Below are positions 1,976-63,687 of a stretch of DNA of 64,000 nt, piece by piece. Source of the stretch: Dehalococcoidia bacterium (GTDB taxonomy: Bacteria; Chloroflexota; Dehalococcoidia; Lucifugimonadales; GCA-2712585); NCBI GenBank assembly GCA_965261665.1, contig OZ253467.1, forward strand, positions 1,217,926 to 1,281,925, written 5' to 3'. Under the pieces are notes generated by a model. It ran no database searches and was not told the DNA's origin. It was given only the letters and a program-made list of their open reading frames with translations. The number at the start of each line of letters is the position of its first letter. The first letter of the stretch is position 1. The position numbers and the translations under genes are program-made.

Positions 1976-2239
1976 GGACGGGCGCCCACAAGGGACGCCC
2001 CTACAGGGGATTGCTGAAGGTCTAGAGGGACGGGCGCCCACAAGGGACGCCCCTACAGGGGATTGCTGAAGGTCTAGAGGGACGGGCGCCCACAAGGGAC
2101 GCCCCTACGGGGGATTGCCGAAGGTCTAGGGGGATGGGCGCCCACAAGGGACGCCCCTACGGGGGAAGGGGAGTGGGAGAGGCGGATTTCTATGACGACG
2201 AGATCTCCCAAGGACGGGCGGTTCCCGAACCGCCCCTAC
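1976..2239 (+). repeat. tandem REP-like hairpin array (4 units of 52 bp plus one variant hairpin)
   Basis: GGGCGCCCACAAGGGACGCCCCTAC occurs at 1980, 2032, 2084 and 2136, each followed by a conserved tail (aggggattgctgaaggtctagag). GGGCGGTTCCCGAACCGCCCCTAC is at 2216-2239. Confidence 0.9.
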
Positions 2240-2290
2240 GAGAATGACATTTGGGGACGCTAGGCGCGGGATGGCATCCAGTTAAAGAGG

Positions 2291-2625
2291 GGGATGGGTC
2301 CCCGCATTCGCGAGGACAACGGAGGGGAGGGCGCCCACGAGGGACGCCCCTACAAGGGATTGCCGGGGTCAGAGGGACGGGCGCCCACAAGGGACGCCCA
2401 TACAAGGGATTGGCGGGGTTTAGAGGGACGGGCGCCCACAAGGGACGCCCCTACAAGGGATTGGCGGGGTTTAGAGGGACGGGCACCCACAAGGGACGTC
2501 CCTACAAGGGATTGCCGGGGTCTAGGGGGGACGGGCGCCCACAAGGGACGCCCCTACAAGGGATTGCCGAAGGTCTAGGGGGACGGGCGCCCACAAGGGA
2601 CGCCCATACAGGGGGATTGGCGGGG
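2291..2625 (+). repeat. tandem REP-like hairpin array (6 units of about 52 bp), preceded by a gggtccccgcaTTcgcgaggacaacgg element
   Basis: GGGCGCCCAC(A/G)AGGGACGCCC(C/A)TAC copies run from 2329 to 2609 with a conserved inter-hairpin tail. There are no unique spacers. Confidence 0.9.
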
Positions 2626-2913
2626 TTAGTCGGCCAGTTGGAATCGCTCCGACTTCGGCGGGCGGGACCATAGAGCGCCGGCGCCGGCCATGGCGGCGGA
2701 TCGCTCCGGGCTGGCGCGCCACTGATCGTAGATTTCGCTGCTCTCCCACGTGACTAGGGTCGTTATCTTCGTGGGGTCGGTGAGGGAATAGAGGGTCGTC
2801 CTCGCGCCGAAGCCCGGGGCTTGGCTCTGGGCGCGTCCGTTGCCCTCGAGCAGCCTTCGCGCCTCGTCGATTTTATCGTCCTTGGCCCAGTGGTGAGTCA
2901 AAACGCCAATCAT
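2626..2913 (-). CDS. antibiotic-biosynthesis-monooxygenase (ABM) domain protein
   Basis: 95-aa ORF of typical ABM size. The pattern is VLTHHWAKDDK...TLVTWESSEIYDQW. Confidence 0.7.
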   Translation of the reverse strand: MIGVLTHHWAKDDKIDEARRLLEGNGRAQSQAPGFGARTTLYSLTDPTKITTLVTWESSEIYDQWRASPERSAAMAGAGALWSRPPKSERFQLAD

Positions 2914-2949
2914 GTTTTCTCCTTTCGTCCGTGGGGTTGGGAATTCGGG

Positions 2950-3411
2950 TCACTTGGCCAGTAGGAATATGGCCCCACCGGCCAGAATGACGCCGGCTAT
3001 TCTTTCGATGCTTATGGGTTCCTTGAGGATGAGGAATCCGAGGACTGCAACTATGGCGATATTCATGCCGAAGAGGGGCGAAACGGTGGAGATGGGCCCC
3101 CGGCTAAGGGCCATGTACAGGCTGATGATGCCGATGCTCAGGGCGACGCCGGAGAGGACGAGGAAGAGGGTGGGTTGGTTGAAGGCCAGATGGTCCGTAA
3201 TCTTCACACCTCGGTAGAGGGCCCAGAGGAGGGCGGCGGCCACCAGAAAGAAGTTGGTCACGAATACGGCGGCTTCCGGCGGGATGCTCTTCAGGGAGAA
3301 CTTCAGCAGAATTATCATGACCGCGTATGCGGACATGGCGATTAGGGTCCAGACGATATAGTGCACCGGTCGACTCTCCTGCGTTGGCAGATTGCTGGCC
3401 CTATTGTACAT
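2950..3411 (-). CDS. small EamA-like (DMT superfamily) membrane protein
   Basis: 153-aa ORF that is almost entirely hydrophobic with 4-5 predicted TM helices. The family call is from memory of the pattern only. Confidence 0.6.
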   Translation of the reverse strand: MYNRASNLPTQESRPVHYIVWTLIAMSAYAVMIILLKFSLKSIPPEAAVFVTNFFLVAAALLWALYRGVKITDHLAFNQPTLFLVLSGVALSIGIISLYMALSRGPISTVSPLFGMNIAIVAVLGFLILKEPISIERIAGVILAGGAIFLLAK

Positions 3412-7275: not shown

Positions 7276-7300
7276 GGGCGCCCACAAGGGACGCCCCTAC
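7276..7300 (+). repeat. solitary REP-like hairpin
   Basis: GGGCGCCCACAAGGGACGCCCCTAC. Confidence 0.9.
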
Positions 7301-8705: not shown

Positions 8706-8846
8706 TCAATGCTGACGAGATTCTTCGCTGTGCTCAGAATGACAGGTGGTGGGCGCAGAATGACAGGTTGGGGGGTAGAGTGACAGTTGGGGTGCAGAGT
8801 GACATATGGGGTGGGCAGAGAGGGCGGGTTTGAAACCCGCCCCTAT
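8706..8846 (+). repeat. mosaic of a gagattcttcg...gaatgac element, about 20-bp tandem (c)aga(a/g)tgaca units x4, and a REP-like hairpin
   Basis: gagattcttcgctgtgctcagaatgac is at 8717-8743, followed by cagaatgacagg / agagtgacag / cagagtgacat units. GGGCGGGTTTGAAACCCGCCCCTAT is at 8822-8846. Confidence 0.85.
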
Positions 8847-10667: not shown

Positions 10668-11100
10668 GGAGGGGTTCCTGCCCCCGTTTTCACGAGGGCA
10701 GGCTCTACGTGGGAACAACGGAGGGAGGGATGGGTCCCCGTCCCCCGTCTTCACGGGGCAGGATCTCGACGCGAGGACAAGGTGGGGAAGGGCGACAAGA
10801 TTTCTCGACTCCGCTGCGCTGTGCTCGGAATGATATGTGTGAGGTGGGGAAAGAGGATGGGGATGGATTTCCGCCGCGGCGGGAACAACGGAGGGAAAGA
10901 TGGGTCCCCGCATGCGGAGACCTTTGCATAACTACCGAAACGCATTCAGATAGTGGTGTGGGACGACTCTTGCCATAGCTAAATCATGGGATTCTGGATT
11001 CCGGCCTTCGCCGGAATGACGGATATGCAAAGGTCTCCATGCGCGAGGACACTGGAGGGTGCCCCCCTGAAGGGGGAGGGAAAGAGGGGGAGGGGATGAA
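10668..11100 (+). repeat. mosaic of short hairpin repeat families with a nested MITE
   Basis: ggttcctGCCCCCGttttcaCGAGGGCaggctct...gggaacaacgg is at 10671-10725, with related copies at 10727-10782 and 10858-10895. A gatttctcgactccgc...ggaatga element is at 10794-10836. A gggtccccgcatgc...gcgaggac element is split by the MITE. Confidence 0.85.
10916..11038 (-). mobile_element. 123-bp MITE, copy 1
   Basis: The terminal inverted repeats are GGAGACCTTTGCATAAC (10916-10932) and GATATGCAAAGGTCTCC (11022-11038). It is flanked by a 4-bp direct repeat ATGC (10912-10915 and 11039-11042). Removing the element and one ATGC restores gggtccccgcatgcgcgaggac. The internal gtcattccggc..ggaatccag hairpin is inverted relative to copy 2. 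Confidence 0.8.
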
Positions 11101-14031: not shown

Positions 14032-14056
14032 GGGCGACCACGAGGGTCGCCCCTAC
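14032..14056 (+). repeat. solitary REP-like hairpin
   Basis: GGGCGACCACGAGGGTCGCCCCTAC has a perfect 8-bp stem. Its CTA (14053-14055) serves as the TAG stop of the minus-strand CDS 14053..15015. Confidence 0.9.
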
Positions 14057-15015
14057 GAAGGGGAGAGAAGGAGGTCCGTGAGGGCTTGTTCCAGGTCTTC
14101 GTCTGTGATCAGCCCTTCGAACCTGTCGTGGATACGACGTTGGGCGTTGATGACGAAGACCCACGGCTCCGTGGTCAATCTCCACTCCAGAAACGCTGGT
14201 GTGGGAACCAACCGGCCCTGGTTCCGAGCCGTTTCGAGGTCCCACGGCTCTATGTGGATGAAATTCACCCTGTCGCCGAACCGTTCCTGAACGCGAACCG
14301 CCGCATCCAACACGGGGCCGCAGATGGCGCTGGTGCAGAACATGGGCGCACTCCATACGAGGACGAAGGGTTTTTCCTCCTGCAAGGCCTGGGCTACAGA
14401 TAGGGAATGCATGTTGTCGGGAGGTTCCCGGCTTTCTATCTCCTGGATGCTTGAAACGTCGTGCACGGTGAGATTTTGGATAGGCGGTGCAGCTTCCCCC
14501 ACGCCCGGAGCGGAGGGATCAGGCAAAACATTGAAGGCGAGGTCGCCCACCGCCGGTCCGGGAGCGTCGCCATTCGCCAAGGCGAATCTTGCCTGCCAGA
14601 CACCGGGGCTTTGGAAGTTAACTCTCGCTATGTATTGTCCGCGAACGTCCTGGTGCTTATGGACAAAATCGTCGTCGTGGAGATGGGGCGTCACTCCTTC
14701 CACTTCGCGATATTCTGTGTCTCTGCGGAACCTGTAGCGCCACTCCATATCCTGGAGGTAGAAGAAGCTAACGGAAATGTCAGCGTCTGCCAGGGGTTCT
14801 CCTTCCATGGACGCCAGGGCGAAGGGGAACCGGTTTTCGCCCACGACGAATTCGCTGGCGCCAAGAAAGGAGTTGTATTGGGGGAGCTGCTGCGAGGGGG
14901 CGCTGGGGGTGTCTAAGAGAAGCCAAACTGAAACTACAGCCACAAGTGCAAGAGTAATGGTCAGAACGGCTAGCCAGGGGCGACGGAGGTGCGCCCTTTT
15001 GAGTCTAGTCAACAT
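14053..15015 (-). CDS. membrane-anchored exported protein with a C-terminal thioredoxin-fold-like domain (CTSAIC)
   Basis: 320-aa ORF with an N-terminal TM anchor (WLAVLTITLALVAVVSVWLLL). The C-terminal region reads FVLVWSAPMFCTSAICGPV. The family is not identified precisely. Confidence 0.6.
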   Translation of the reverse strand: MLTRLKRAHLRRPWLAVLTITLALVAVVSVWLLLDTPSAPSQQLPQYNSFLGASEFVVGENRFPFALASMEGEPLADADISVSFFYLQDMEWRYRFRRDTEYREVEGVTPHLHDDDFVHKHQDVRGQYIARVNFQSPGVWQARFALANGDAPGPAVGDLAFNVLPDPSAPGVGEAAPPIQNLTVHDVSSIQEIESREPPDNMHSLSVAQALQEEKPFVLVWSAPMFCTSAICGPVLDAAVRVQERFGDRVNFIHIEPWDLETARNQGRLVPTPAFLEWRLTTEPWVFVINAQRRIHDRFEGLITDEDLEQALTDLLLSPS

Positions 15016-15450: not shown

Positions 15451-15627
15451 GGATTCCTGCACCCGTCTTCATGGGGGGCAGGCTCTTCGTGGGAATGATG
15501 GGTGTGAGTTGGGAGGTTAGGGGGGTGACTTACGACGGGCGACCACGAGGGTCGCCCCTACAGGAGAGGGGGAAGGGTTCCCGCCCCCGTCTTCACGGGG
15601 GCAGGCTCTTCGCGAGAACAACGGAGG
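15451..15627 (+). repeat. composite repeat: GCCCCCG-hairpin element / linker / REP hairpin / GCCCCCG-hairpin element
   Basis: ggattcctgcacccgtcttcatggggggcaggctcttcgtgggaa; then gggaggttaggggggtgacttacgac; then GGGCGACCACGAGGGTCGCCCCTAC (15537-15561); then gggttcccGCCCCCGtcttcaCGGGGGCaggctcttcgcgagaacaacgg. The architecture matches the 133-bp unit at 57055-57650. Confidence 0.85.
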
Positions 15628-24873: not shown

Positions 24874-24948
24874 GGGCCCGTAGCTCAGCGGTAGAGCGTC
24901 CGGCTCATAACCGGTTGGTCGTAGGTTCGAACCCTGCCGGGCCCACCA
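24874..24948 (+). tRNA. tRNA with CAU anticodon (elongator Met or Ile2/lysidine type), CCA encoded
   Basis: Hand-folded cloverleaf. The acceptor is GGGCCCG/CGGGCCC and the D arm is GCTC-agcggta-GAGC. The anticodon loop is CTCATAA and the T arm is GTAGG-ttcgaac-CCTGC. The G1:C72 pair excludes an initiator. C4:G69 and C5:G68 resemble tRNA-Ile2. Confidence 0.9.
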
Positions 24949-25160
24949 AACTGGATAAAATTAAGAACTATCACATTGAGGTTCAGTTTAGACCTATGAT
25001 GCGAGGCTCAGATTGGCCAAGCTATGAATAAGTTGAACCGACGGTCGGGAAAGGTCACAGATTGACCTTCAACGGCCTCAATACTAGGATTAGCCATGAG
25101 TTCGCTTGCGACAGATTATCGGACGTACGATTCATACATGCCTGAGACCGCGACTTTGAC

Positions 25161-26585
25161 GTGCGAAGGGGTCGCCGAGGTTCTGAAGGACGTTACAGCC
25201 CGGAGATCACTTTGAGTGTTGTGGATCTCAGCCGCGTGTACGAACTACAGATTGACGACGGCGACAACCGCCTCGGCGCGACGCGCGCAGCACTGGGCGC
25301 AAACTTGGATTTCCACGGCACGGACGGCAGCTACGGCTCCCACGCTTGGCACCCCTTCCCCGCGAAGTTCCCGCCGCAGTTGCCGGAGTTCATGATCCGC
25401 CATCTCTCAGACCCCGGAGACCTCGTTTTCGACCCAATGGTTGGCTCTGGGACTACGCTCGTCGAAGCCGTACGGCTCGGACGTCGAGCCGTTGGCTGCG
25501 ATATCGACCCGTTGGCGCGAATGATTACAGCAGCCAAGTTGACCCCGATTGACCCGTTTGCCGTCCTATGGGAGGGAAACGGGATCATAGCTGGTGCTAG
25601 TGACGACTATCACCGATTCCGTTGGAGGCTGGAAAGGGACTTTAGTCTGCGGTTCGACTCGAGGACAGAGCAGTTCATCCACTACTGGTTCCCGCCGCAG
25701 CAACAGCTTGAACTTCTTGCTCTAGTGCAGCGCATCGAAGCGCTGCCCAAGGGAGGCACTCGAGACTTCCTCAAGGTCGTATTCTCATCAACCATCATTG
25801 CCAAATCTGGCGGAGTATCTCTGGCGCGAGACCTAGCACACACCCGTCCTCACAGAGACACAGAAAAAACGCCAAAATCGGCCTTCGTAGAGTTTGGTAA
25901 GCGCCTACAGCGAAATGTGGCGGCTTTCGCCAAGAACAAGCTGACCGACAACATGATACCCTCCCGTCTCAGCGGGGCCGGTGAGGCTCGGGTATCTGCT
26001 CCCTTTATATCCATACACGCCGCAAGCGCTGCTGACACTGGCCTGCCGCCAGCTAGTGTAGACCTGATCGTGACATCGCCACCCTATGCGAACAATGCTA
26101 TCGACTATATGCGCGCGCACAAGTTCTCGCTAGTGTGGTTTGACTGGAAGATCGCCGACCTTGCCCGGATTCGCGCTCAATATGTAGGGCACGATGCGAT
26201 AGCTGGTCTGCGCTGCGACGGGCTGCCCAGTCAATGCGAAGAAACATTGGCAAAACTGGCGGAGCGTGACGAACGGAAGGCACTGGTATTGCGTCGCTAC
26301 TTCGAGGAGATGAAGACCGTGATTTGGGAGATGCTGCGAGTGTTGAAAAGAGGTAGGCCGGTTGTGATAGTCGTAGGGTCCTCGAGGTTACGAGGCTTGG
26401 ACGTAGAGACACATAAGGGACTCGCCGCCATTGGCGAAAATGCAGGTTTCATCCTAGCCGGAATTGGCACCCGCTTACTTGATCGGGACAAACGGATGAT
26501 GCCAGCGCGATGGGGCCGGCTACAGCAGTCACAGATCGAAGAGCGCATGTACAAAGAGTACGTGCTTGGATTTGTGAAGCCGTAA
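25161..26585 (+). CDS. DNA methyltransferase with SPPY catalytic motif (N4-cytosine/N6-adenine class, motif I before motif IV)
   Basis: Motif I is VFDPMVGSGTTLVEA at about residue 95. Motif IV is DLIVTSPPYANNAIDY at about residue 300. The stop overlaps the start of the downstream endonuclease (TAATG). The 5' start is uncertain. Confidence 0.8.
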   Translation: MRRGRRGSEGRYSPEITLSVVDLSRVYELQIDDGDNRLGATRAALGANLDFHGTDGSYGSHAWHPFPAKFPPQLPEFMIRHLSDPGDLVFDPMVGSGTTLVEAVRLGRRAVGCDIDPLARMITAAKLTPIDPFAVLWEGNGIIAGASDDYHRFRWRLERDFSLRFDSRTEQFIHYWFPPQQQLELLALVQRIEALPKGGTRDFLKVVFSSTIIAKSGGVSLARDLAHTRPHRDTEKTPKSAFVEFGKRLQRNVAAFAKNKLTDNMIPSRLSGAGEARVSAPFISIHAASAADTGLPPASVDLIVTSPPYANNAIDYMRAHKFSLVWFDWKIADLARIRAQYVGHDAIAGLRCDGLPSQCEETLAKLAERDERKALVLRRYFEEMKTVIWEMLRVLKRGRPVVIVVGSSRLRGLDVETHKGLAAIGENAGFILAGIGTRLLDRDKRMMPARWGRLQQSQIEERMYKEYVLGFVKP

Positions 26586-27421
26586 TGACAGGCAGGATCG
26601 AAGCTCTCAGACAGAATTATCACCGTCGAATTTGTAGTGAAGTGTTGAGGTTGCCTGCGTCAGGAATTCCTAGCAACGCCGATAAAGGAAGTACTTCGAG
26701 TGTCCGAATCGCTAAGGGTATTGTAGAGAACATTGGGCTTCCGCTGAAATCCGAAAGATTGCCAGGACAGACGGCGGGGCGTCGGTTCGAGGATGAGACA
26801 AGGCGCTTCTTGTGCGACGCATTTGGATTACTTTCTCATTTACGCCCGGGGAAATGGGATTTCTCGCTGGGCGGAGACATACGTGACTATGAGCAATACC
26901 TGCATTTGTCCGATGTGCGACGAGTAGTCGAACAGCATGAGGAGTTGCGTGTCATCTTCGGCGACTATATTGTCACGCCTGACATTGTTGTTTGCCGAGA
27001 GCCGGTTACAGATTCAGAGATCAACGAGAGCGAAGCCCTACTGAATGACGACGCCGTGGCTACCTACACGCCACTGCGACGCGTAAATTCGCAAGCGAAG
27101 ATCCTGCATGCGAGCGTGTCCTGCAAATGGACGATTCGCAGCGACCGGTCTCAAAACGCACGTACAGAGGGTCTGAACCTTGTGCGTAACCGAAAAGGCA
27201 AGACGCCGCATATAGTCGTCGTCGTAGGGGAACCTCTGCCTGGACGAATTGCGTCGCTTGCCTTTGGCACGGGTGATATCGACTGCATCTACCATTTCGC
27301 CCTGAGGGAACTGAGGGCCGCAGCTATGGATTGCGATTCGGACGCTGACATGTTGGACACACTCGTCACTGGCAGGAGGCTACGCGATATCAGTGACTTG
27401 CCATTTGACTTGGCTGCCTGA
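26585..27421 (+). CDS. type II restriction endonuclease, NgoMIV/Cfr10I-like
   Basis: 278 aa from the ATG at 26585. Along its length it resembles my recollection of R.NgoMIV: SERLPGQT, YIVTPDIVV, LHASVSCKWTIRSDRSQNARTEGLNLVRNRKG, PHIVVV, GTGDIDCIYHFAL, RLRDISDLPFDLA. This needs a REBASE/BLAST check. Confidence 0.7.
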   Translation: MTGRIEALRQNYHRRICSEVLRLPASGIPSNADKGSTSSVRIAKGIVENIGLPLKSERLPGQTAGRRFEDETRRFLCDAFGLLSHLRPGKWDFSLGGDIRDYEQYLHLSDVRRVVEQHEELRVIFGDYIVTPDIVVCREPVTDSEINESEALLNDDAVATYTPLRRVNSQAKILHASVSCKWTIRSDRSQNARTEGLNLVRNRKGKTPHIVVVVGEPLPGRIASLAFGTGDIDCIYHFALRELRAAAMDCDSDADMLDTLVTGRRLRDISDLPFDLAA

Positions 27422-27753
27422 GCTTCCAACTGTGCCCTGCTTTTCTTAGAGTGTGTCTAATAAATCCCTTTGTTACCCCGAGCGCTCCATGTCACCTTGA
27501 GTGAAGCCGAAGGGTCTGGAGTTGGAGGGGCGGACTTCGTTGCCTAACAGACGTTTATGCTTCGCTCCACCGACGCCCTTTTTAGACACCCTCTTAGATC
27601 GTGATACGTACTTGGCTGTACGCAGGCTGTTAGAGAAATGCTGCGGGTATATTGGAGTAGTGCTGGGAATTCTTAACGGCGGGTGATTCTTTGGGGGATG
27701 GGATGGGGGGATGGGTGTTGCGGAGGGGGATTGTGTGCTGGCATAATGCTGTC

Positions 27754-27990
27754 ATGCCGGTTCAGATTACGATAAGGAATGTTCCAGAGGAAGTTAGGGA
27801 CGAGCTCGCCGCTCTCGCCGCACTTAAACGTCAGTCGATGCAGGAATTCTTGCGAGGCGAGTTGGAACGCATCGCGTCAAGACCTTCCATCGACACATGG
27901 CTGCAAGTCGTCCGTGAGCGGAAGGCGGTATACAAAACACGGGTGACGTCGGACGACATACTGGGTGCACGCGACGAAGACCGGAAGTGA
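27754..27990 (+). CDS. vapB: VapB/FitA-like ribbon-helix-helix antitoxin
   Basis: MPVQITIRNVPEEVRDELAALAALKRQSMQEFLRGELERIA. It overlaps vapC by 4 nt (GTGA). Confidence 0.75.
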   Translation: MPVQITIRNVPEEVRDELAALAALKRQSMQEFLRGELERIASRPSIDTWLQVVRERKAVYKTRVTSDDILGARDEDRK

Positions 27991-28937: not shown

Positions 28938-29170
28938 GTGGTGACGAGATTCCTCAAGGGACTTGGAATGACATGCAACGAGATTCTTCGGCTGCGCTCT
29001 GGATCACAGGTGTGTGATGAGGGAGAATGGGCAGGTTTGAAACCTGCCCCTACGGAGAAGGGGTTGGTGGATGTGAGGACATGGGAAAGATGGGTCCCCG
29101 CCCCCGTCCCCTGTCTGCACGGGGGCAAGCTTTCGACACGAGGGCAGGCTATGCGCGAGGACAAGGGGTG
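28938..29170 (+). repeat. mosaic of hairpin repeat families
   Basis: Two gagattc(c/t)tc...g(g)aat(g/c)ac elements are followed by GGGCAGGTTTGAAACCTGCCCCTAC (29029-29053) and a gggtccccGCCCCCGt...CGGGGGCaagc element (29089-29166). Confidence 0.85.
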
Positions 29171-31498: not shown

Positions 31499-32283
31499 GG
31501 GCGACCACAAGGGTCGCCCCTACAGAAGAGGGGACGGAGCGGCATGATGTTGGAGGGGGAAGGGTGGTTCACGAACCGCCCCTGCGGGGGGTTGGTCGCA
31601 CGGTCGCATGTAACGGGCGACCACAAGGGTCGCCCCTACGGGAAGGGGGGACGGAGTGGGATGATGTTTGAGGGAAGGGCGGTTCACGAACCGCCCCTAC
31701 GGGGGGTTGGTCGCACGGTCGCATGTAACGGGCGAGCACAAGGGACGCCCCTACGGGAAGAGGGGACGGAGAGGCATGATGTTGGAGGGGGAAAGGCGGT
31801 CCCCGAACCGCCCCTACGGGGGGTTGGTCGCACGGTCGCATGTAACGGGCGACCACAAGGGACGTCCCTACGAGAAGAGGGGATGGAGAGGCATGATGTT
31901 GGAGGGGGAAAGGCGGTTCCCGAACCGCCCCTACGGGGGGTTGTCGCACGGTCGCATGTAACGGGCGATCACGAGGGACGCCCCTATGGTAAGGGGGGAC
32001 GGAGTGGGATGACGTGGGAAGGGGAAGGGTGGTTCCCGAACCGCTCCTATGGGGGTTGGCCGCACGGTCGCATGTAACGGGCGATCACGAGGGACGCCCC
32101 TACGGGAAGAATGGACGGAGTGGGATGACGTGGGAGAGGAAAGGGCGGTTCCCGAACCGCCCCTACGGGGGGTTGGCCGCACGGTCGCATGTAACGGGCG
32201 ACCACGAGGGACGCCCCTACGGGAAGAATGGACGGAGTGGGATGACGTGGGAGAGGAAAGGGCGGTTCGGGAACGGCCCCTAC
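31499..32283 (+). repeat. higher-order tandem array: 7 units of about 116 bp, each with two different REP-like hairpins
   Basis: GGGCGACCACAAGGGTCGCCCCTAC-type hairpins start at 31499, 31615, 31730, 31847, 31963, 32079 and 32196. They alternate with GGG(C/T)GGTTC(A/C)CGAACCGCCCCTAC-type hairpins. The linkers are conserved (..acggagyggsatgatgttggaggg.. and ggggggttggtcgcacggtcgcatgtaac). Confidence 0.9.
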
Positions 32284-32393
32284 GAATTGCCAAGAACGTC
32301 GGCGTCAAGAGCATAGTGGCGGTCTATTTGCATAGTAATGGCGGGTATGGAGTTGTGAGGGGATTGGGCCGGAATTGCGGATGGGCCAGCTTG

Positions 32394-32402
32394 TGATAAA
32401 AT
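32394..32402 (+). promoter_or_regulatory. candidate extended -10 element upstream of the repeat-protein gene
   Basis: TGATAAAAT (TGn + TAAAAT) lies 36 nt upstream of the ATG at 32438. A GAGGAGGA RBS is at about 32426. Confidence 0.3.
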
Positions 32403-38670: not shown

Positions 38671-38798
38671 AGCAGGCGATTCCCCCCAACAACGCTGACC
38701 GCATTCTACCAGCCCCCGCCCCTCCTAGAAACACCACTACCCACCCCGTATACACTGCCAGCCCTTCTGATGCCGCGCGTCATTCTCTAAAGTCACAT

Positions 38799-38837
38799 GT
38801 CATTCTGATCGCAGCGAAGCGGAGTCGAGGAATCTCG
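38799..38837 (-). repeat. gtcattctga...gaatctc short repeat (opposite orientation to the copies at 8717, 46989 and 59155)
   Basis: gtcattctgatcgcagcgaagcggagtcgaggaatctcg. Confidence 0.8.
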
Positions 38838-39072
38838 TGGCACGCCCTCATATTTCATACACGAACTCCCAGCCTCCTCTCCAGTTGGACCATCCCGTGA
38901 AGCGTTTTGGCTCCATGATCGTCGCACTGAGGCAGTTGATAGCCGAAGAAGAGGCCGACATAATAGAACATGGACGGGAATTGGTCGCCTATGGGCTCCT
39001 AGTTATCGTACAAAGGCTTACACTCCATCCCCCTCATAATTTTTGCAATTCTAGAACCACGAAAGGAGCCTC

Positions 39073-39393
39073 ATGTCCATCTCCACTGCACCGCAAATGT
39101 TCATTCCTGCATACATTAGTCGTGTACCTGAAACCTCCGGCGTCTATGCGCTGAATGACGGCTTTAACATCATCTACTACGGCAGCGCCGAACATTCCAT
39201 CAGAGATAGTCTTATGGGTCATCTCAATGGCAAAGACGGTCCTTGCTCACAAAGAGCAATATGGTTCCTCTACGAAACAACGTCATCGCCGATAAAGAGA
39301 GAAAAAGAGCTGCTGGCCGAATTCCAGCAAGACTTCGGCAGACTCCCTGAATGCAACGAGGAGGCCTCACCCACCCTGGAAGAAGACAGCTAA
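39073..39393 (+). CDS. small GIY-YIG domain protein
   Basis: 106 aa: SGVYALNDGFNIIYYGSAEHSIRDSLMGHL gives GIY...YIG spacing with the following Arg. It lies in a lower-GC stretch. Confidence 0.6.
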   Translation: MSISTAPQMFIPAYISRVPETSGVYALNDGFNIIYYGSAEHSIRDSLMGHLNGKDGPCSQRAIWFLYETTSSPIKREKELLAEFQQDFGRLPECNEEASPTLEEDS

Positions 39394-39444
39394 CCCCCTC
39401 TTGTTCCTGCGAAGGCAGGAATCCACTCCTCTCCCACTCCACCC

Positions 39445-39555
39445 GTCATTCCGGCGAAAGCCGGAATCCAGACCCCACATTAGCCATGCCCTTTGTGCTC
39501 CCCACGACGCTAACCAAAACCCCACCGGTGGGGGCGGGTTTCAAACCCGCCCATT
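39445..39555 (+). repeat. gtcattccggcgaaagccggaatccag hairpin plus a degenerate REP-like hairpin
   Basis: 39445-39471 holds the stem CCGGC-gaaa-GCCGG. GGGCGGGTTTCAAACCCGCCC is at 39532-39552, followed by ATTC instead of CTAC. Confidence 0.8.
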
Positions 39556-39717
39556 CCCTCCCAATCTCATCATCACACGATCCGAAATCATCCTGAAACG
39601 AACGCGAAATGAAACCCTCCATTTTGACCACTTTCACGCCTAATATCCGGAAATGAACTTGAAATAAACTCGGATATACTCACCGCGTCCAATTTACGAT
39701 GTACCGCCCGTAAAGGC

Positions 39718-40218
39718 TCAGATAGCGGACACGGAAATAGCCACACCCTCCTCCCTTGGGTGCGATGTGTCCGGTAAGCGATGAATAAGCAACGTCCGAA
39801 AGTTGGAGTCGTCGTAATTCCAATGCTGTAAGGTGAAGGGATCTGTGCCATCCGAGCAAAACAATCCGGCGGCCACGGAGTCAAGAACGGGCTTAATGAA
39901 ATTCTCAACGTCCAGCTTGGCCTGGCCGCCCACCTTCCGATTACCGTGGTTCGACGGATGGAACGCCATCCCTAGCGAAATTGTGTACTGGAGAGTCTCG
40001 CTCCAAGAGCCTTCTCCTCGAACGGCCTTCACCTCCGAAGTTACCCAACGCTTCCAGTCCTTCTGCCCTGCTGTGTTCTCCGTGATACTGTTGATGATGT
40101 TTCCCCTCACTAGAGTGCACAGCCTCATCCTAGATTCAGCGAACTCAACAATAGGCACGTCCCATCCCCCTATGCTCTCTACCCGATACATAAGCTCACA
40201 CCTCACCATCTCTGTCAT
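39718..40218 (-). CDS. hypothetical protein with RusA-like Holliday-junction resolvase motif
   Basis: 166 aa. KLDVENFIKPVLDSVAAGLF....DD resembles the RusA D-x-(D/E)-N-x-x-K-x-x-x-D-x-(L/V) core. This is a weak assignment from memory only. Confidence 0.35.
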   Translation of the reverse strand: MTEMVRCELMYRVESIGGWDVPIVEFAESRMRLCTLVRGNIINSITENTAGQKDWKRWVTSEVKAVRGEGSWSETLQYTISLGMAFHPSNHGNRKVGGQAKLDVENFIKPVLDSVAAGLFCSDGTDPFTLQHWNYDDSNFRTLLIHRLPDTSHPREEGVAISVSAI

Positions 40219-40326
40219 TCAAAACCTCCTAATCTTGTTGTGAGCGCAACGAAGAATCTCGTCACCTCTACCAATCAGCATGGGCCTATCCCTTCCCCCC
40301 TTGTCAATCCTCTCCCCCTCCCCCCC

Positions 40327-40365
40327 AAAAAGAGGGGCGGCCCTGTGTGGGCCGCCCCTCTTTTG
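40327..40365 (-). terminator. intrinsic terminator downstream of groEL (bidirectional-looking)
   Basis: A perfect 13-bp stem AGAGGGGCGGCCC-tgtgt-GGGCCGCCCCTCT is flanked by A5 on one side and T4 on the other, 36 nt after the groEL stop. Confidence 0.8.
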
Positions 40366-45454: not shown

Positions 45455-46075
45455 GTTGGGTGGGGGTGCTACGGGATGGCGTGGGGGAACGGGCGGTTCG
45501 CGAACCGCCCCTACCAGATGGTTGTCAGAGGGAATGGGGGATGGGTCCCCGCATGCGCGAGGACAACGGAGGGGAGGGGGCGATGGGTGAGGCGGGACGT
45601 GATGGCGGGGGGAACGGGCGGTTCGCGAACCGCCCCTACCAGATGGTTGTCAGAGGGAATGGGGGATGGGTCCCCGCATGCGCGAGGACAACGGGGGAGG
45701 GGGGCCGATGGGTCGAGGCGGGACGTGATGGCGGGGGGAACGGGCGGTTCGCGAACCGCCCGTTCCAGATGGTTGTTAGAGGGAATGGGGGATGGGTCCC
45801 CGCATGCGCGAGGACAACGGGGGGAGGGGGGCCGATGGGTCGAGGCGGGACGTGATGGCGGGGGGAACGGGCGGTTCGCGAACCGCCCGTTCCAGATGGT
45901 TGTTAGAGGGAATGAGGGGATGGGTCCCCGCATGCGCGAGGACAACGGAGGGGAGGGGGCGATGGGTGAGGCGGGACGTGATGGCGGGGGGAACGGGCGG
46001 TTCGCGAACCGCCCGTTCCAGATGGTTGTCAGAGGGAATGAGGGGATGGGTCCCCGCATGCGCGAGGACAAGAGG
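45455..46075 (+). repeat. higher-order tandem array: 5 units of about 126 bp (REP hairpin plus gggtccccgcatgcgcgaggac element)
   Basis: GGGCGGTTCGCGAACCGCCC starts at 45491, 45616, 45742, 45869 and 45995. It is followed by CTAC or GTTC, then cagatggttgt(c/t)agagggaatg(a/g)gggatgggtccccgcatgcgcgaggacaa. Confidence 0.9.
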
Positions 46076-46147
46076 GAAAGACGGGTGACGGTGGTTTGGA
46101 TGACTGATATATTTGAGGTCAATCGGTAACTTACAACGGGAGGGGTT

Positions 46148-47021: not shown

Positions 47022-47328
47022 TATGTCCAAGAAAGGCCACATAAGGCGATGAAAATGGATGCAGGAAGAGGGCTGGATTCCGGCTTTTTCCGAAATGATG
47101 GTTGGGATCGGGGTCTTGTAGCGGATGAAGGGGGGCGCGAACCTCCACTACGGGGGAGAATGTTGTCGGGCACAGGGTTCACCCCCATCCTAACCTTCCC
47201 CCATCAAGGGGGAAGGGATTTGCAGGCGCGGAACGGGCTATTTGCATAGTAATGACAGATATTATGGTTCGGAATGACCTGAAATTGATTTGGGGAGGAT
47301 GGGAGGAAAATGAAATGGAGGAAAGGTT

Positions 47329-54483: not shown

Positions 54484-54550
54484 AGGGGATGGGTCCCCGC
54501 ATGCGCGAGGACACGGGGAGGGGGACGGGCGGTTCGCGAACCGCCCGTAC
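54484..54550 (+). repeat. gggtccccgcatgcgcgaggac element plus REP-like hairpin
   Basis: ggggatgggtccccgcatgcgcgaggacac, then GGGCGGTTCGCGAACCGCCCGTAC (54527-54550). Confidence 0.9.
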
Positions 54551-56440: not shown

Positions 56441-56522
56441 GGGCGGTTCCTGAACCGCCCCTACACGTTGCCTAGGGGTGGCGTGGCTGATGGGAGAGGG
56501 CAGGTTTGAAACCTGTCCCTAC
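56441..56522 (+). repeat. two REP-like hairpins
   Basis: GGGCGGTTCCTGAACCGCCCCTAC (56441-56464) and GGGCAGGTTTGAAACCTGTCCCTAC (56498-56522). Confidence 0.9.
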
Positions 56523-57054: not shown

Positions 57055-57729
57055 ATTCTTCGTCTTCACAAGGGCGGGCTCTGCGCGGGAACAACGGAAG
57101 GGGGCGGGAGGTTAGGGGGTGTCTTAAGACGGGCAGCCACAAGGGCTGCCCCTACGGATAGGGGGGGAAGGAGCGAGGAGGGGTTCCGGCCCACGTTTTC
57201 ACAAGGGCAGGCTCTGCGTGGGAACAACGGGTGGGGGCGGGAGGTTAGGGGGTGTCTTAAGACGGGCAGCCACAAGGGCTGTCCCTACGGATAGGTGGGC
57301 GAAGGAGCGAGGAGGGGTTCCGGCCCCCGTCTTCATGGGGCGGGCTCTGCGCGGGAACAACGGAAGGGGCCGGGAGGTTAGGGGGTGTCTTAAGACGGGC
57401 AGCCACAAGGGCTGCCCCTACGGATAGGGGGGTGAAGGAGCGAGGAGGGGTTCCTGCCCCCGTCTTCACTGGGGCAGGCTCTGCGCGGGAATAACGGAGG
57501 GGGGAGGGAGGTTAGGGTGTGTCTTAAGACGGGCAGCCACAAGGGCTGCCCCTACGGATAGGGGGGCGAAGGAGCGAGGGTGGGTTCCCGCCCCGTCTTC
57601 ACGGGGGGGCAGGCTCTGCGCGGGAACAGCGGAGGGGGCAGGATGACAGGTGGGAGGGCGTTGACGAAGTGACAGAGGAGTGAGGATAGGGTGTCGATGA
57701 TGGAGGGCAGGTTTCAAACCTGCCCCTAT
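57055..57729 (+). repeat. higher-order tandem array: 4-5 units of about 133 bp (GCCCCCG-hairpin element plus REP hairpin), then one extra REP hairpin
   Basis: GGGCAGCCACAAGGGCTG(C/T)CCCTAC starts at 57131, 57264, 57397 and 57531. It alternates with ggttcc(g/t/c)gcccccgtcttca(c/t)ggggcaggctctgcgcgggaa(c/t)aacgg. GGGCAGGTTTCAAACCTGCCCCTAT is at 57705-57729. Confidence 0.9.
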
Positions 57730-59131: not shown

Positions 59132-59154
59132 GGTTTGAGTAAGCGGTGAACGGC

Positions 59155-59842: not shown

Positions 59843-60298
59843 TTAAGACCGCAGAGGCATAATCTCGGACAGGAGTTGGGACAACGACTCCGAATTGCGA
59901 GTTTGGCATTCCCAGACAATCACCACCTGCCATTCTTTAAGGCGGAGCTCATTGTAATTCTTCTTCGCCCTTGAGATGTTGCGGTCGAACTTTTTCCGCC
60001 AGTAGTCTATGTTTGTTCTTGGAGTAGAAGCCTGTTTGCAACCCGGGTGCCTATGCCAGAAGCAACCATTGACAAATACCGCTGTACGATGCTTTCGCAG
60101 GACGATGTCCGGGGTGCCCGGCAGTGATTTCACGTGGAGCCTGAAGCGGAATCCGGCACGATGGAGGATTGAACGCACACGAATTTCCGGACTTGTGTCT
60201 TTGCTGCGGACCCGACTCATTACCCAACTGCGATATTCGCGCGACTCGGGGTTCCGCTTGGTCTCACTATGGGCAACTAGGCTTGAATCTGAATCCAC
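59843..60298 (-). CDS. vsr: very-short-patch repair endonuclease
   Basis: RSWVMSRVRSKDTSPEIRVRSILHRAGFRFRLH...PGTPDIVLRKHRTAVFVNGCFWHRH. Confidence 0.9.
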   Translation of the reverse strand: MDSDSSLVAHSETKRNPESREYRSWVMSRVRSKDTSPEIRVRSILHRAGFRFRLHVKSLPGTPDIVLRKHRTAVFVNGCFWHRHPGCKQASTPRTNIDYWRKKFDRNISRAKKNYNELRLKEWQVVIVWECQTRNSESLSQLLSEIMPLRS

Positions 60299-61011
60299 GA
60301 ATCCTCGTAATTAATATTGGTCAATATGGTTTCAGGGTCGACAACTGGCACTTGAGGCGCAATCGAAAATCTGCGCGCTGAACTTGGCACATCTCGAATC
60401 ACAGTAAATTGGCTTCCATGAGGCTGCCAAGTGAAGCGGTGAACACCGTTAGACTTGTCGGTACCCCACAAAGTACCTCGATGATTGAATTCCCAGCTGT
60501 AGTTCGAATTAACGAATCTCCGAGCTTCATCCTCGAAAAGCAGGAATTCCCTGTTGGCCATGTTTCTTACCAAAACGGCTATCCTAAGGTCGTTGAATTC
60601 GTCTAAAGCTTCATTGACCCTGGCATTCCAAATGTCCAGAACCGCTTTTCCGGTTTTATTGGCACTGGCGCGCGGGTCTGAAATTCCATGTGAATAGTCA
60701 GGAGAGTTTCGGCCGGAAATCAGTCGTACGGTTTTTGTCGAAAAAGGCTTTGCGGACTTGACTATTTTCAGGGACCAAGCGCACCGTTGGAGAAAAACGT
60801 CTGCAATACCTAAAGGAGTAGCTCTGTCAATGCCACCAACGGCTTTGGCGAAGAACTCGTCAAATTCCCCGGAACGCAAGTCGCGAAATCCGACTGCAAG
60901 CCTGTGGACAATTTGCTTGCCTAGCTCAAGGAGTACGGAATCGGGTATCTGTCCAAGTTCGTACGGTCCAGTGCGACGTTTCCGCTGGCCTCGTAACCGC
61001 GTCTTCCTCAA
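60277..61011 (-). CDS. putative type II restriction endonuclease (partner of the C5-methyltransferase)
   Basis: 244-aa ORF between dcm-like and vsr on the same strand with overlapping ends. A possible PD-(D/E)xK-like core is IADV...AWSLKIVK. No family was recognised and the start is uncertain. Confidence 0.5.
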   Translation of the reverse strand: MRKTRLRGQRKRRTGPYELGQIPDSVLLELGKQIVHRLAVGFRDLRSGEFDEFFAKAVGGIDRATPLGIADVFLQRCAWSLKIVKSAKPFSTKTVRLISGRNSPDYSHGISDPRASANKTGKAVLDIWNARVNEALDEFNDLRIAVLVRNMANREFLLFEDEARRFVNSNYSWEFNHRGTLWGTDKSNGVHRFTWQPHGSQFTVIRDVPSSARRFSIAPQVPVVDPETILTNINYEDSWIQIQA

Positions 61012-62032
61012 TTACCTTCACCACCTGCTCAATAACTGCCTGAACCATCGGAACAGGCACGGCGTTGCCAGCCTGCTTCCGGGTTTGAGAGTCGTTGCAA
61101 AGTATTTGCCATGAATCCGGGAATCCCTGTAATCGCAGCAATTCCCGGGGCGTCGGGCGACGTTCGCCGTCTAAAAGCAAGTAATTGTAAGAAGCATTCG
61201 CTCGCAAGGCGCAAGACCATTCGTGACTCGAAATGTTGCCACCCTTATTTTCGTGCCAGATTGCGGGAGATACTGACGCGGAATGAGCCGCCTTGCGCTT
61301 AGCGCGAATCTTCTCTGATGCGAAGTGCTTTGGGTCCGGATTCGGTTCCAAGAGATCCGCCAACGGGCGCATTGGCATTTGTTCCTCTGGCCACTGGAAT
61401 CTTGTGAACGGGACTTGGGTGGCGACGATAATTGTCCGCTCTCGTTTTTGTGGAAGTCCGAAGTCTAGAGCGTTCAGCACCTTGGACTCAACTGTATACC
61501 CGAGGTTGTGGAGGTCAGTAATGATGCGAAGCAACACTTGCCCTCTCTGAGCGGTCGACAGTTGCTTCACATTTTCCAGGACAATTCCCTGAGGGCGTTT
61601 CGCTTGGATTACTCGCAGAATCTCAAAAAATAATGTCCCCCTAGGGTCTTCAAAACCTTTCCGTTGACCGATAATGGAGAAGGGTTGGCACGGAAAGCCG
61701 GCGAAAAGCAAATCGTGGTCTGGCACGTCGGAGGCGTCCAAAGCCGCAATGTCACCTGCGGGTTCAAGTGCAAAGTTGTGCTCGTATGCTTTCCGAGTCT
61801 CTGGATCTATGTCACACGCAAAGACGACATCAAGACCCAAGTTGCGGGCGGCTACGTGGAATCCACCGATGCCGCTAAAGAAATCCGCACACCTTAGCGG
61901 CAATTTGTCGTCTGCAACTGGAAACTCCAGCAACGCAGTTGCGTGGTTTGCTGCATGGCCGTTGCTTCGCACGGCATCCTCCACTTCATCAAGCCTCTGT
62001 TGGATGATATATCTTGCATTCCGAGCCGTCAA
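60926..62032 (-). CDS. DNA (cytosine-5)-methyltransferase
   Basis: Motif I is DFFSGIGGF, motif IV GFPCQPFS, motif VI LENV, motif VIII QKRERTIIV and motif X GNAVPVPM. Confidence 0.92.
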   Translation of the reverse strand: MTARNARYIIQQRLDEVEDAVRSNGHAANHATALLEFPVADDKLPLRCADFFSGIGGFHVAARNLGLDVVFACDIDPETRKAYEHNFALEPAGDIAALDASDVPDHDLLFAGFPCQPFSIIGQRKGFEDPRGTLFFEILRVIQAKRPQGIVLENVKQLSTAQRGQVLLRIITDLHNLGYTVESKVLNALDFGLPQKRERTIIVATQVPFTRFQWPEEQMPMRPLADLLEPNPDPKHFASEKIRAKRKAAHSASVSPAIWHENKGGNISSHEWSCALRANASYNYLLLDGERRPTPRELLRLQGFPDSWQILCNDSQTRKQAGNAVPVPMVQAVIEQVVKVIEEDAVTRPAETSHWTVRTWTDTRFRTP

Positions 62033-62093
62033 GGGGTTTTCTTACAAAGGTTCGGATGCGTTTTCCTATTAGGCTTTGCATGCGTAGTGGGGG

Positions 62094-63512
62094 TTAGCGG
62101 ACGGGGCCGCCGAGGGGGGGAGTGGGGCTACCGCTGGCGAGGAAGCGTCCGTAGCCGGGTTTTTGCTCGAGGCGTCCCTGGTTGAGGAGGACTTGGCCCC
62201 GGAGCAGGGTCATCCAGGGCTTGCCGTTGACCTTCCAGCCCTCGTAGAGGGTGAATCCTGAGTTGCCGTGGTGGTCTTCGGCGCGTACTACGGTTTCGCC
62301 TTGGGGGTCGATGATGGTGATGTCGGCGTCGGTGCCGACTTGGAGGGAACCCTTCTGGGGGTAGAGACCGAAGATGCGGGCGGGGTTTTCCGACATGCAG
62401 CGGGCCAGCCATGTGATGGGGAGGTCGCGACCGACGACGCCTTCGCTGTAGGCGAGGGGGGCTAGGGTCTCGATGCCGGGGGAGCCGAAGGGGACGGGAC
62501 TGCCGTCGGGGTTGACGAAGATATTTTTCCAGCCGGGCTGCTTGAGGGCCTTGAAGTGGGGAGCGTGGTCGCTGCCGATGGTGGAGATGTAGCCAAGCTC
62601 AAGGCCCTTCCACATGGCTGGCTGGTCGGGGCCGTCCTTGGGACGGAGGGGCGGGCCGATTTTCGCAAGGGGGCCGACTTTGGCCATTTCCTCGTCGGAC
62701 AGGAGGAGATACTGTGGGCAGGTCTCGGTCCAGACTCGTTGGCCCTGGCCCTGGGCCTGTTTGATTCGCTCCATGCCAACATCGGTGCTGAGGTGGACGA
62801 CGTAGACGGGGCAGTTGGTTACGTTGCCCATTTTGATGGCGCGGTTTATGGCTTCTTCTTCGGCCCAATCGGGGCAAGCGGAGGGAAAGTCGGTGGGGTG
62901 GACACAGCCCTGGCTGATGAGCTGGTTCTCGAGATAGTCGATGATGTTGCCGCTTTCGCAGTGGAGCTGGACGATGCCGCCGCCCTTGGAGACGGTCTCC
63001 ATAACCTGGCAGATGAAGTCGTCGGTGCACATTCGAATCTGGTTTTTCTTGTATGACATAAACATCTTGAAGGAGGTGACGCCCATTTCCAAGGCCTGAG
63101 GGAGGCTCTTGAGGATGTAGGGGCGGTTGTTGAGGATATAGTGGAAGGCGAAATCGACCACGGCGGTGGACTCGATTTCTTCGCGGTGGCGGTTGATGGC
63201 AGAGGGGAGAGTCTCTTCGGCCTCAACGTCGTAGGTGCCAAAGGGCAGGAGGGTGGTGAGGCCGGAATGGGCTGCAGCGATGGAGCCGAGCTCATAAGAA
63301 TCGCAGCGGTCGAGGTGGACGTGACAGTCGATGAGGCCAGGGAGGACGAACTTGCCGGAGGCGTCGATATAGCGGTCGGCGGGAGGGAGAAGGTGATCGG
63401 GGCCAATGGCGACTATCTTCTCGTCTGAAATGGCTATGGCGGCGTCGAAGACTTCGGAAGAGGTGACGATTTTTCCGCCGGCGATGATGGTGTCGACTCT
63501 GATGTCTGGCAT
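62094..63512 (-). CDS. cyclic amidohydrolase (dihydropyrimidinase/hydantoinase/dihydroorotase-like)
   Basis: 472 aa: DTIIAGGKIV...DASGKFVLPGLIDCHVHLD, a later FKMFMSYK, and GSDHAP. Confidence 0.85.
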   Translation of the reverse strand: MPDIRVDTIIAGGKIVTSSEVFDAAIAISDEKIVAIGPDHLLPPADRYIDASGKFVLPGLIDCHVHLDRCDSYELGSIAAAHSGLTTLLPFGTYDVEAEETLPSAINRHREEIESTAVVDFAFHYILNNRPYILKSLPQALEMGVTSFKMFMSYKKNQIRMCTDDFICQVMETVSKGGGIVQLHCESGNIIDYLENQLISQGCVHPTDFPSACPDWAEEEAINRAIKMGNVTNCPVYVVHLSTDVGMERIKQAQGQGQRVWTETCPQYLLLSDEEMAKVGPLAKIGPPLRPKDGPDQPAMWKGLELGYISTIGSDHAPHFKALKQPGWKNIFVNPDGSPVPFGSPGIETLAPLAYSEGVVGRDLPITWLARCMSENPARIFGLYPQKGSLQVGTDADITIIDPQGETVVRAEDHHGNSGFTLYEGWKVNGKPWMTLLRGQVLLNQGRLEQKPGYGRFLASGSPTPPLGGPVR

Positions 63513-63606
63513 GATGTGCCTCCTGGGGGGATGGGGCTATTATAGGGCAGAATGGGAAGGTTGGCACGTTTGGGGTGGCAGGGGGGTAGTGTGGGGAGAG
63601 TAAGAC

Positions 63607-63687
63607 GGGCGCCCACGAGGGACGCCCCTACGGGGGATGTGTTCATGGGTTGTAGAGGGGGAAGGGCGGTTCGCGAACCGCCACTAC
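63607..63687 (+). repeat. two REP-like hairpins
   Basis: GGGCGCCCACGAGGGACGCCCCTAC (63607-63631) and GGGCGGTTCGCGAACCGCCACTAC (63664-63687). Confidence 0.9.

Follow-up and report, generated by a model that had tools for sequence, protein, structure and literature searches.

Co-oriented GTAG-tagged hairpins in a Dehalococcoidia genome: probable REP elements arranged head to tail and aligned with replication asymmetry

The window analyzed here, a 64,000-nucleotide stretch of contig OZ253467.1 from a Dehalococcoidia bacterium (positions 1,217,926 to 1,281,925), carries between its genes a dense family of short hairpins that are probably repetitive extragenic palindromes (REPs) of the kind mobilized by REP-associated tyrosine transposases (RAYTs). 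GroEL and GroES from the window recur without change in several ENA long-read metagenome assemblies, among others on a circular contig of 3,055,267 bp and on contigs of 2,851,146 and 3,111,307 bp, and the closest named relatives of its GroEL belong to Dehalococcoidia/SAR202 (86-88% identity). Judged by sequence, the host appears to be a SAR202/Dehalococcoidia-like lineage of metagenome-assembled genomes (MAGs) with a genome of roughly 3.1 Mb. Sixteen orthologous loci of related strains, each 1-22 kb long and 90-96% identical to the window, served for comparison, and 15 of them were scanned for REPs.

The exact pattern GGGC-N12-13-GCCC-CTAY matched the window 30 times, always on the plus strand, against 0.07 expected matches, and none of 100 dinucleotide-preserving shuffles reached 30. 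A permissive scan, which tolerated no more than two mismatches across tag and anchors and required at least six of eight stem pairs, returned 45 elements spanning positions 1980 to 63683 at about 15 independent sites, a density of about one copy per 1.4 kb; an earlier note on this DNA had arrived at a matching 45-50 copies over 1976-63687. Each element consists of a 20-21-nt hairpin with a stem of 8-10 bp and, on the minus strand, reads as GTAG followed by this G-C-footed hairpin, which is the REP architecture that had been recognized. All copies lie outside ORFs (open reading frames) with coding-type codon-position GC, mostly between convergent or co-directional genes. The intergenic placement described earlier stands, but the picture of copies dispersed through many intergenic regions does not, because 31 of the 45 belong to five head-to-tail tandem arrays with periods of 52, 51, 117, 126 and 133 bp (Table 1). 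Repeats within the window make up 5.9% of its length by self-BLAST, short of the 8-10% estimated before. Long ORFs at 2251-2673, 31472-32396 and 45460-46129 span REP arrays and lack coding-type codon-position GC; on related contigs, gene callers have annotated such array-spanning ORFs as proteins of 54-118 aa without a Pfam match.

Several stem classes co-exist in the window (A, A', A'', B, C and C'), as had been suggested, and every stem named in the earlier note was recovered (GACC/GGTC, AGCC/GGCT, GGTT..AACC, AGGTTT/AAACCT and GGGTTT/AAACCC). Written on the minus strand, class A is GGGCGACC-ctygt-GGTCGCCC, class A' is GGGCGTCC-ctygt-GGGCGCCC, class A'' is GGGCAGCC...GGCTGCCC, class B is GGGCGGTT-cgcg-AACCGCCC, and classes C and C' are GGGC(G/A)GGTTT-c-AAACC(C/T)GCCC. 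Class A' had been listed, as GGGCGCCC-acaag-GGACGCCC, as a single imperfect variant with a C/A mismatch; this mismatch exists on the plus strand, but the form is the commonest of all, with 12 copies that are fully paired on the minus (GTAG) strand through a G.T wobble. The stem foot is nearly invariant, with G-C at positions 1, 2 and 3 in 42, 45 and 41 of the 45 copies, respectively, and C-G at position 4 in 44. Two or three Watson-Crick pair types occur at each of stem positions 5-8, and these positions are paired in 93 of 100 cells across the 25 distinct stem variants, compared with 66.9 +/- 3.7 in shuffles (0 of 10,000 reaching 93), which bears out the pair-preserving variation noticed previously. 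The tag is GTAG in 33 of the 45 copies and ATAG, GTAT, GTAC, GCAG or GTGG in the remainder, together with three GAAC; the constant flanks and plus-strand CTAC or CTAT tag first described thus hold for the most part, the exceptions to the tag on that strand being ATAC (two copies), GTAC (one) and GTTC (three, where it extends the palindrome). Every class folds as single-stranded DNA (ssDNA), at -9 to -10.7 kcal/mol, and the folds of the two class A' strands hardly differ when DNA energy parameters are used (-9.3 versus -9.0 kcal/mol).

Four other identities for these elements were considered and rejected. An intrinsic terminator is ruled out by the flanks, CTACRGGG on the plus strand and GTCYYY on the minus strand, which contain no T-run on either strand; the hairpin at 40335-40357, which does have A and T runs beside it, is the terminator of groEL and does not belong to the family. 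CRISPR arrays share the regular spacing of short palindromic repeats, but the window repeats are GTAG-tagged, whole periods are 90-96% identical, meaning that the would-be spacers are repeated as well, and no cas genes were noticed. A known RNA family is excluded by the lack of any Rfam match. An assembly artefact, a concern raised with the original observation, is excluded, since assemblies made independently in at least seven ENA analyses contain the same elements oriented alike.

The tag lies on the minus strand in 44 of the 45 copies, and over the roughly 15 independent sites this one-way orientation has a two-sided p of ~6e-5. Orientation is the same at convergent gene pairs (2.0-2.6, 7.3, 14.0 and 29.0 kb), at sites with plus-strand genes on both sides (31.5, 45.5 and 54.5 kb) and among minus-strand genes (8.8, 15.5 and 57 kb). 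The plus strand shows a third-codon-position GC skew of about +0.2 to +0.7 in most native genes on either strand, an unusually strong asymmetry, and because genes of both strands are skewed alike, the skew does not come from transcription. By the usual GC-skew rule, the plus strand is marked as leading-strand sequence. In the segment 35894-43343, which contains CoA-transferase genes, a 166-aa ORF, groEL-groES and an enoyl-CoA hydratase gene, skew is negative whichever way the genes point, the pattern that an inversion would leave, and the segment looks inverted relative to the direction of replication; its gene order is common to all related strains fetched. The sole family hairpin in this segment, at 39532, is the one copy of the window with its only plausible tag, GTGG, on the plus strand. 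REP orientation tracks replication asymmetry, with GTAG on the C-rich strand, and not transcription. From the GC skew we infer that the GTAG strand serves as template for the leading strand and so corresponds to the nascent lagging strand.

All 32 tagged REPs found in the scanned loci of related strains share the orientation of the window, and none is opposite. Among loci of species-representative genomes with an absolute skew of at least 0.08, GTAG lies on the C-rich strand in 18 cases and on the G-rich strand in 3, a ratio that divides into 14:0 among Chloroflexota and 4:3 among the remaining phyla. JGI metagenome contigs, an independent set with few strongly skewed loci, gave 4:6 and hence no bias. 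An orientation rule for the REP class as a whole was rejected on the counts from the other phyla and the JGI set; the bias belongs to this lineage and, apparently, to skewed Chloroflexota.

Comparison of the orthologous loci revealed that REP content changes between closely related strains. In the spacer between the amidase and short-chain dehydrogenase (adh_short) genes, followed across 15 orthologous loci, the REP set differs by strain, whereas its orientation is constant. Class B units occupy this spacer in the window (five), in strain L121 (four) and in L130 (three); L129, L131-L133 and L135-L137 carry a class B and a class C element; and L122, L123 and L125 carry an element of the form GGGCTGGTTT(C/G)AAACCAGCCC, with unrelated surrounding sequence. 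The 117-bp array is likewise present in L121, while a single half-unit occupies that site in L122, and L124 aligns like L122. No clean pair of filled and empty insertion sites was found among the comparable orthologous spacers, which show wholesale replacement instead, and looking up the exact protein of ORF 14053-15015 yielded no record. REPs have been gained, lost and amplified on the time scale over which strains 90-96% identical diverged, and this replacement, together with the restriction of the elements to one-way singletons and head-to-tail arrays, suggests that a strand-specific process linked to replication is still under way.

The same hairpins occur far beyond this lineage. A class A pattern in which stem positions 5 and 6 were left unconstrained matched at least 120 stretches from species-representative genomes, whose hosts include Acidobacteriota, Chloroflexota, Bacteroidota, Gammaproteobacteria, Latescibacterota, Planctomycetota and Oscillospiraceae; at least 120 contigs of JGI metagenomes matched as well. 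The two unconstrained positions are paired in 96-97% of these matches, against expectations of 75% and 44%. Inverted REP doublets are common in other phyla. Across phyla, the non-Watson-Crick pairs are G.T on the GTAG strand in 21 cases and on the other strand in 6, although this G.T/A.C asymmetry is a weak pointer to the relevant strand, because class A' folds nearly as well on one strand as on the other. The stem variants are discrete multi-copy subfamilies recurring in many phyla, rather than the product of drift in a single lineage.

The RAYT connection comes from those other genomes. In 5 of 120 loci of 8 kb, RAYT genes adjoin or contain these hairpins (L010, L108 with two copies, L060, L066 and L089), and the L010 protein matches Pfam Y1_Tnp (PF01797); L128 and L261 have such genes too, and over all these loci the GTAG-GGGC hairpins beside or within Y1_Tnp genes include the window's classes A, A'' and B. 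The REP/RAYT-type system proposed in the earlier note is thereby supported, with the qualification that the link was established through RAYT genes of other genomes. In this RAYT clade, the intragenic REP is in frame and lies just after the HUH motif, and RAYT genes with a REP of their own are located at L108 103-747 and 1832-2419, L128 10001-10573 and L261 10001-10588, as well as in L139 and L140. Nearly all of the best 120 of 2,869 RAYT homologues contain a (C/G/R/S)-RGGSRTAPT insert, whose RGGSRTAPT peptide is encoded by GTAGGGGCGGTTCGCGAACCGCCCCTAC, which is class B of the window bearing a tag on each strand, as checked at the DNA level in L128, where the intragenic REP is the only one in 20 kb. 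The L139 intragenic REP is a compensatory variant (GDSRIAPT, GAT...ATC) and that of L140 a G.T variant; more generally, amino-acid pairs encoded by the intragenic REPs covary (G..T, D..I, A..S, A..C, G..S) and so keep the DNA palindrome, and some RAYT proteins have tandemly duplicated REP inserts. Within a class A doublet of a Dehalococcoidia RAYT (P0153, L261), GGGCGACCACAAGGGTCGCCCCTAC of the window recurs exactly, and two more class A hairpins follow just downstream of this RAYT gene. Window classes A and B are letter-identical to REPs located in frame inside RAYT genes.

These RAYT matches, 177-243 aa in length, carry the motifs PNH[LI]HG, LWQRNY and YI(R/H)(D/N)NP. The TnpAREP subclass 2.4 proteins are described as having NH[IFV]H, WQ and YIxNNP motifs, a length of ~194 aa and in-frame REPs between HuH and Y (PMC6006769), so that our NHLH is slightly off the published pattern. 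An in-frame REP within RAYT genes is already known for this subclass (Quentin 2018, PMC6006769). Subclass 2.4, which corresponds to Bertels group 4, is further characterized by long REPs, three G-C foot pairs, double-foot forms and a scattered distribution over many phyla (PMC6006769). Double-foot forms (GTAG...CTAC) number zero in the window and two in the related strains (L130 6621 and L131 14412), the others being within RAYT genes.

We consider it about 75% probable that the window elements belong with the GTAG-tagged REPs associated with TnpAREP/RAYT subclass 2.4 (Bertels group 4), short non-autonomous hairpins whose cognate transposase gene presumably lies in another part of the roughly 3.1-Mb genome. 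By analogy with the biochemistry of other RAYTs (PMC3333891, PMC8266576), such a RAYT would bind the GTAG strand as ssDNA, with the 5' GTAG and the invariant GGGC/GCCC stem foot as the constant features recognized; as a Y1 HUH transposase, it could then cut at CT or CA beside the hairpin, with GTAG serving as the guide, and rejoin the strands. Repeated cut-and-join, or primer extension, might add, remove and tandemly reiterate units composed of a REP and its flanking DNA. The stems would vary only in hairpin-keeping ways because the hairpin is, in this proposal, the feature recognized.

Several observations weigh against this interpretation. No RAYT was found in the window, where the earlier note had also seen none, or in the 16 orthologous loci (~2% of the genome), either by tblastn with 12 queries (Escherichia coli RayT, the L010 RAYT and ten cognate RAYTs) or with a profile hidden Markov model (HMM) of ~120 RAYTs, whose positive controls scored 189-322 bits. 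With two L108 RAYTs as queries, which have more than 3,000 homologues, none of the best 120 matches per search comes from a genome whose longest contig equals a known lineage contig in length, a weak indication; one protein, P0004, comes from a sample that also holds the lineage but was rejected as its RAYT since it is on an unrelated contig. Inverted REP pairs of the REPIN or BIME (bacterial interspersed mosaic element) type are absent from the window and from the related strains. The GTAG strand coincides with the C-rich strand, whereas the analogy with IS608, in which the active strand is on the lagging-strand template (PMC3971601), predicts the G-rich one. Finally, slippage or unequal recombination, instead of a transposase, could be responsible for array growth. 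This last point is central to the idea that the REPs are relics of a system whose RAYT has since been lost, with arrays and strain differences produced by slippage, unequal recombination and deletion, which we regard as unlikely. The failure to find a RAYT in the loci inspected agrees with it, as do the roughly two thirds of copies that sit in tandem arrays with non-hairpin DNA in their units, for which slippage or recombination suffices, and the loss of REPtrons in some strains (Di Nocera 2013, PMC3733652). However, strains differ at one spacer in REP class (B arrays, C plus B, or the GGGCTGGTTT class) and not only in copy number, and such class differences require the gain of new elements; in addition, singletons are present at many unrelated sites, and the inspection for RAYTs covered only the ~2% of the genome mentioned above.

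If the hairpins acted in RNA, as 3' stabilizers, attenuators or terminators of transcripts with their spread being secondary, their position just downstream of genes in many cases and between convergent genes at four sites would be explained, and so would the bias of G.T pairs to one strand across phyla, which Di Nocera 2013 took as a sign of RNA function (PMC3733652). We nevertheless hold this to be very improbable: orientation is constant beside plus-strand genes (31.5, 45.5 and 54.5 kb) and minus-strand genes (8.8, 15.5 and 57 kb), so that transcripts would carry different strands of the element at different sites; the T-run that follows the groEL terminator hairpin is missing after these hairpins on either strand; no Rfam family matches; and a terminator has no need of arrays of 4-7 units. 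The strict co-orientation with GC skew, seen in the window and related strains and again in the other Chloroflexota loci (14:0), would also be expected of a polar chromosomal signal, a strand-oriented protein-binding motif co-oriented by selection in the manner of FtsK-orienting polar sequences (KOPS) or Chi. Yet KOPS and Chi are short duplex words that need no hairpin, whereas here the stem covaries, and other phyla have inverted doublets without skew bias; moreover, the copies are clustered in arrays and not evenly spread, and we give this explanation hardly any weight.

For the favored reading, that of RAYT-type REPs, the polarity itself deserves a separate comment. It is conceivable, albeit rather doubtful, that REPs of strongly skewed Chloroflexota, this lineage included, persist or arise only with the GTAG strand on the C-rich strand, opposite to the IS200/IS605 rule. 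Two speculative routes to such a polarity may be proposed. Copies exposed on the lagging-strand template might be preferentially excised, or RAYT strand transfer might join new copies to the 3'-OH ends of Okazaki fragments, which would also account for the head-to-tail arrays. If true, either route would amount to in-genome evidence for REP dynamics coupled to the replication fork.

In Pseudomonas and E. coli, REPINs and BIMEs are regarded as the units that move, and Bertels and Rainey are said to have described, in 2011, the Pseudomonas REPIN as an inverted REP doublet. Pseudomonas REPINs (RAYT group 3) resemble the window elements in forming a high-copy, non-autonomous population with several subfamilies per genome, but the window is without any inverted doublet. 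The E. coli REP/BIME system with RayT (subclass 2.2, group 2) is similar in its GTAG followed by a GC-rich palindrome and in its intergenic location, often at the 3' ends of genes, and the tandem-amplification models published for it would suit the window arrays; its stems are longer and bulged and its BIMEs alternate, in contrast to the perfect 8-10-bp stems of the window, which never alternate. A Y1 HUH enzyme acts on the E. coli REP as ssDNA and cleaves at CT (PMC3333891, PMC8266576).

Subclass 2.4 or group 4 REPs (PMC6006769, PMC5581495) share with the window family the GTAG at the stem foot, at least three G-C bottom pairs and the scattered occurrence in many phyla, Chloroflexota included; their double-foot variants have counterparts in the related strains L130 and L131, with none in the window. 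Unlike them, the window copies point one way, with head-to-tail composite arrays in place of inverted pairs, their density is very high, and no RAYT was found in the lineage sequence examined. The clustered GTAG-23 repeats of Thermomicrobium roseum (PMC3733652) also have a Chloroflexota host, a comparison made by description and not by sequence. In Di Nocera 2013, members of the GTAG-tagged REP superfamily are many-copy palindromic stem-loops of 20-40 nt with GTAG, or a GYAG/GTRG variant, at one end, located mainly outside genes and mostly where neighbours are convergent or co-directional, a description that the window family fits. Di Nocera 2013 reported co-existing GTAG families, G.T pairs and clusters tandemly reiterated with flanking DNA, and found head-to-tail dimers to be rare or absent in most genomes (PMC3733652), whereas in the window head-to-tail organization is the rule. 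IS200/IS605 elements such as IS608 and ISDra2 likewise combine an ssDNA hairpin with a 5' guide tetranucleotide and strand-specific chemistry, and the passages on this point in PMC3971601, and on Ton-Hoang 2010 in PMC3333891, describe a genome-wide orientation bias tied to replication. Those elements are autonomous and have their active strand on the lagging-strand template, while the GTAG strand of the window, as judged from GC skew, would be opposite.

Table 1. REP hairpins and arrays in the window, with the strand of each
Feature	Position	Strand	Details
Array, 3.8 x 52-bp unit	1967..2166	-	One class A' hairpin GTAG-GGGCGTCC-cttgt-GGGCGCCC per unit; begins 7 nt past the stop codon of gene 78-1973
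Class B singleton, GTAG-GGGCGGTTCGGGAACCGCCC	2216..2239	-	
Array, 5.9 x 51-bp unit, class A'	2325..2626	-	GTAT tag in two copies; one degenerate (2481)
Class A' singleton	7276..7300	-	Between convergent hexapeptide transferase (+) and ROK kinase (-) genes
Class C singleton, ATAG-GGGCGGGTTTCAAACCCGCCC	8822..8846	-	Between two minus-strand genes
Class A singleton, GTAG-GGGCGACCCTCGTGGTCGCCC	14032..14056	-	Nearly fills the 39 bp that separate two convergent genes; minus-strand ORF 14053-15015 has as its stop codon the TAG of this GTAG (14053-14055)
Class A singleton	15537..15561	-	Between minus-strand genes
Class C' singleton, GTAG-GGGCAGGTTTCAAACCTGCCC	29029..29053	-	Between convergent genes
Composite array, 6.8 x 117-bp unit	31499..32284	-	One A-type and one B-type hairpin per unit; 7 A-type and 7 B-type copies, several degenerate
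Class C hairpin	39528..39552	+	Sole plausible tag GTGG (+); only oppositely oriented copy
Array, 4.8 x 126-bp unit, class B hairpin GGGCGGTTCGCGAACCGCCC	45471..46071	-	GTAG tag in two copies; GAAC/GTTC flanks in three, palindrome 15 bp per arm; REPs at this position differ in other strains
Class B singleton, GTAC tag	54527..54550	-	Between two plus-strand genes
Two same-orientation REPs	56441..56522	-	Class B (56441-56464) and degenerate class C' (56498-56522)
Composite array, 4.4 x 133-bp unit	57061..57643	-	Class A'' GTAG-GGGCAGCCCTTGTGGCTGCCC and a second, unrelated hairpin-like segment per unit; downstream of minus-strand MmgE/PrpD gene
Class C' singleton, ATAG tag	57705..57729	-	
REP pair	63607..63687	-	Class A' (63607-63631) and degenerate class B (63664-63687); upstream of minus-strand gene 62094-63512

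Other features of the window and its relatives were recorded alongside the REPs. A probable island (24874-28391) lies beside a tRNA-Met gene (24874-24948), and GC is lower (0.564) over 24-28 kb. It includes an N6/N4 DNA methylase gene (25161-26585) and an NgoMIV-type restriction enzyme gene (26510-27421), both with skew near zero, together with a FitA-like/PIN toxin-antitoxin pair (27691-28391) whose skew is weakly low at window level; a few ordinary genes are also low. A second zero-skew block, at 59843-62032, comprises genes for a Vsr very-short-patch repair endonuclease (59843-60298) and a C-5 cytosine DNA methylase (60926-62032). The zero-skew restriction-modification genes are probably recent arrivals. 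The stretch 27444-27601 matches an L122 fragment that resembles the remnant of an insertion sequence (IS) transposase.

Members of the other REP superfamily in the literature, with CGTC-tagged hairpins (CGTC-ATTCCGGC-gaaR-GCCGGAAT), are present at 11000-11025 (-) and 39444-39467 (+), with related pieces at 31151-31203 and 47178-47217, and the same element occurs in the unrelated genomes L010 and L128. The two clear copies are oppositely oriented, the plus-strand one being within the inverted-skew segment. In L122 (20440-20640), an element of ~185 bp that is bounded by terminal inverted repeats (...catgtttcaaaagtc / gacttttgaaacag...) and resembles a miniature inverted-repeat transposable element has landed inside a class A REP (GGGCGACCACGAGG / AAGGGTCGCCCCTAC), interrupting its loop. 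The region downstream of groEL (38700-40300) is polymorphic among the strains compared (L123, L124, L130, L131 and L134), with a gene for a Fic-domain protein of 338-420 aa in some strains and small unannotated ORFs in the window and others. A 264-bp tandem repeat (32846-33574; 2.8 copies, 75% identity) lies inside ORF 32438-33805, which encodes 455 aa without a Pfam match and is kept in all related strains.

REPs are among the commonest bacterial repeats, and we know of no direct observation of their movement in living cells. The kind of element described here is known, and the window family adds a member to it; its strict replication-linked orientation is the only part worth pursuing. The points worth keeping are that this orientation is opposite to that of IS200/IS605, that the organization is exclusively head to tail, and that many strains co-occur. 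In practical terms, REPs of this kind break assemblies and yield spurious ORFs, such as 2251-2673 and 31472-32396, and they explain odd peptides in MAG annotations, such as 'GGSRTAPT' and 'ATTRVAPT'. The uncultured lineage combines a very high REP density, a very strong strand-marking skew and many co-occurring strains with different REP content, and it is thus a natural system for asking whether the gain and loss of REPs are linked to a single strand at the replication fork.

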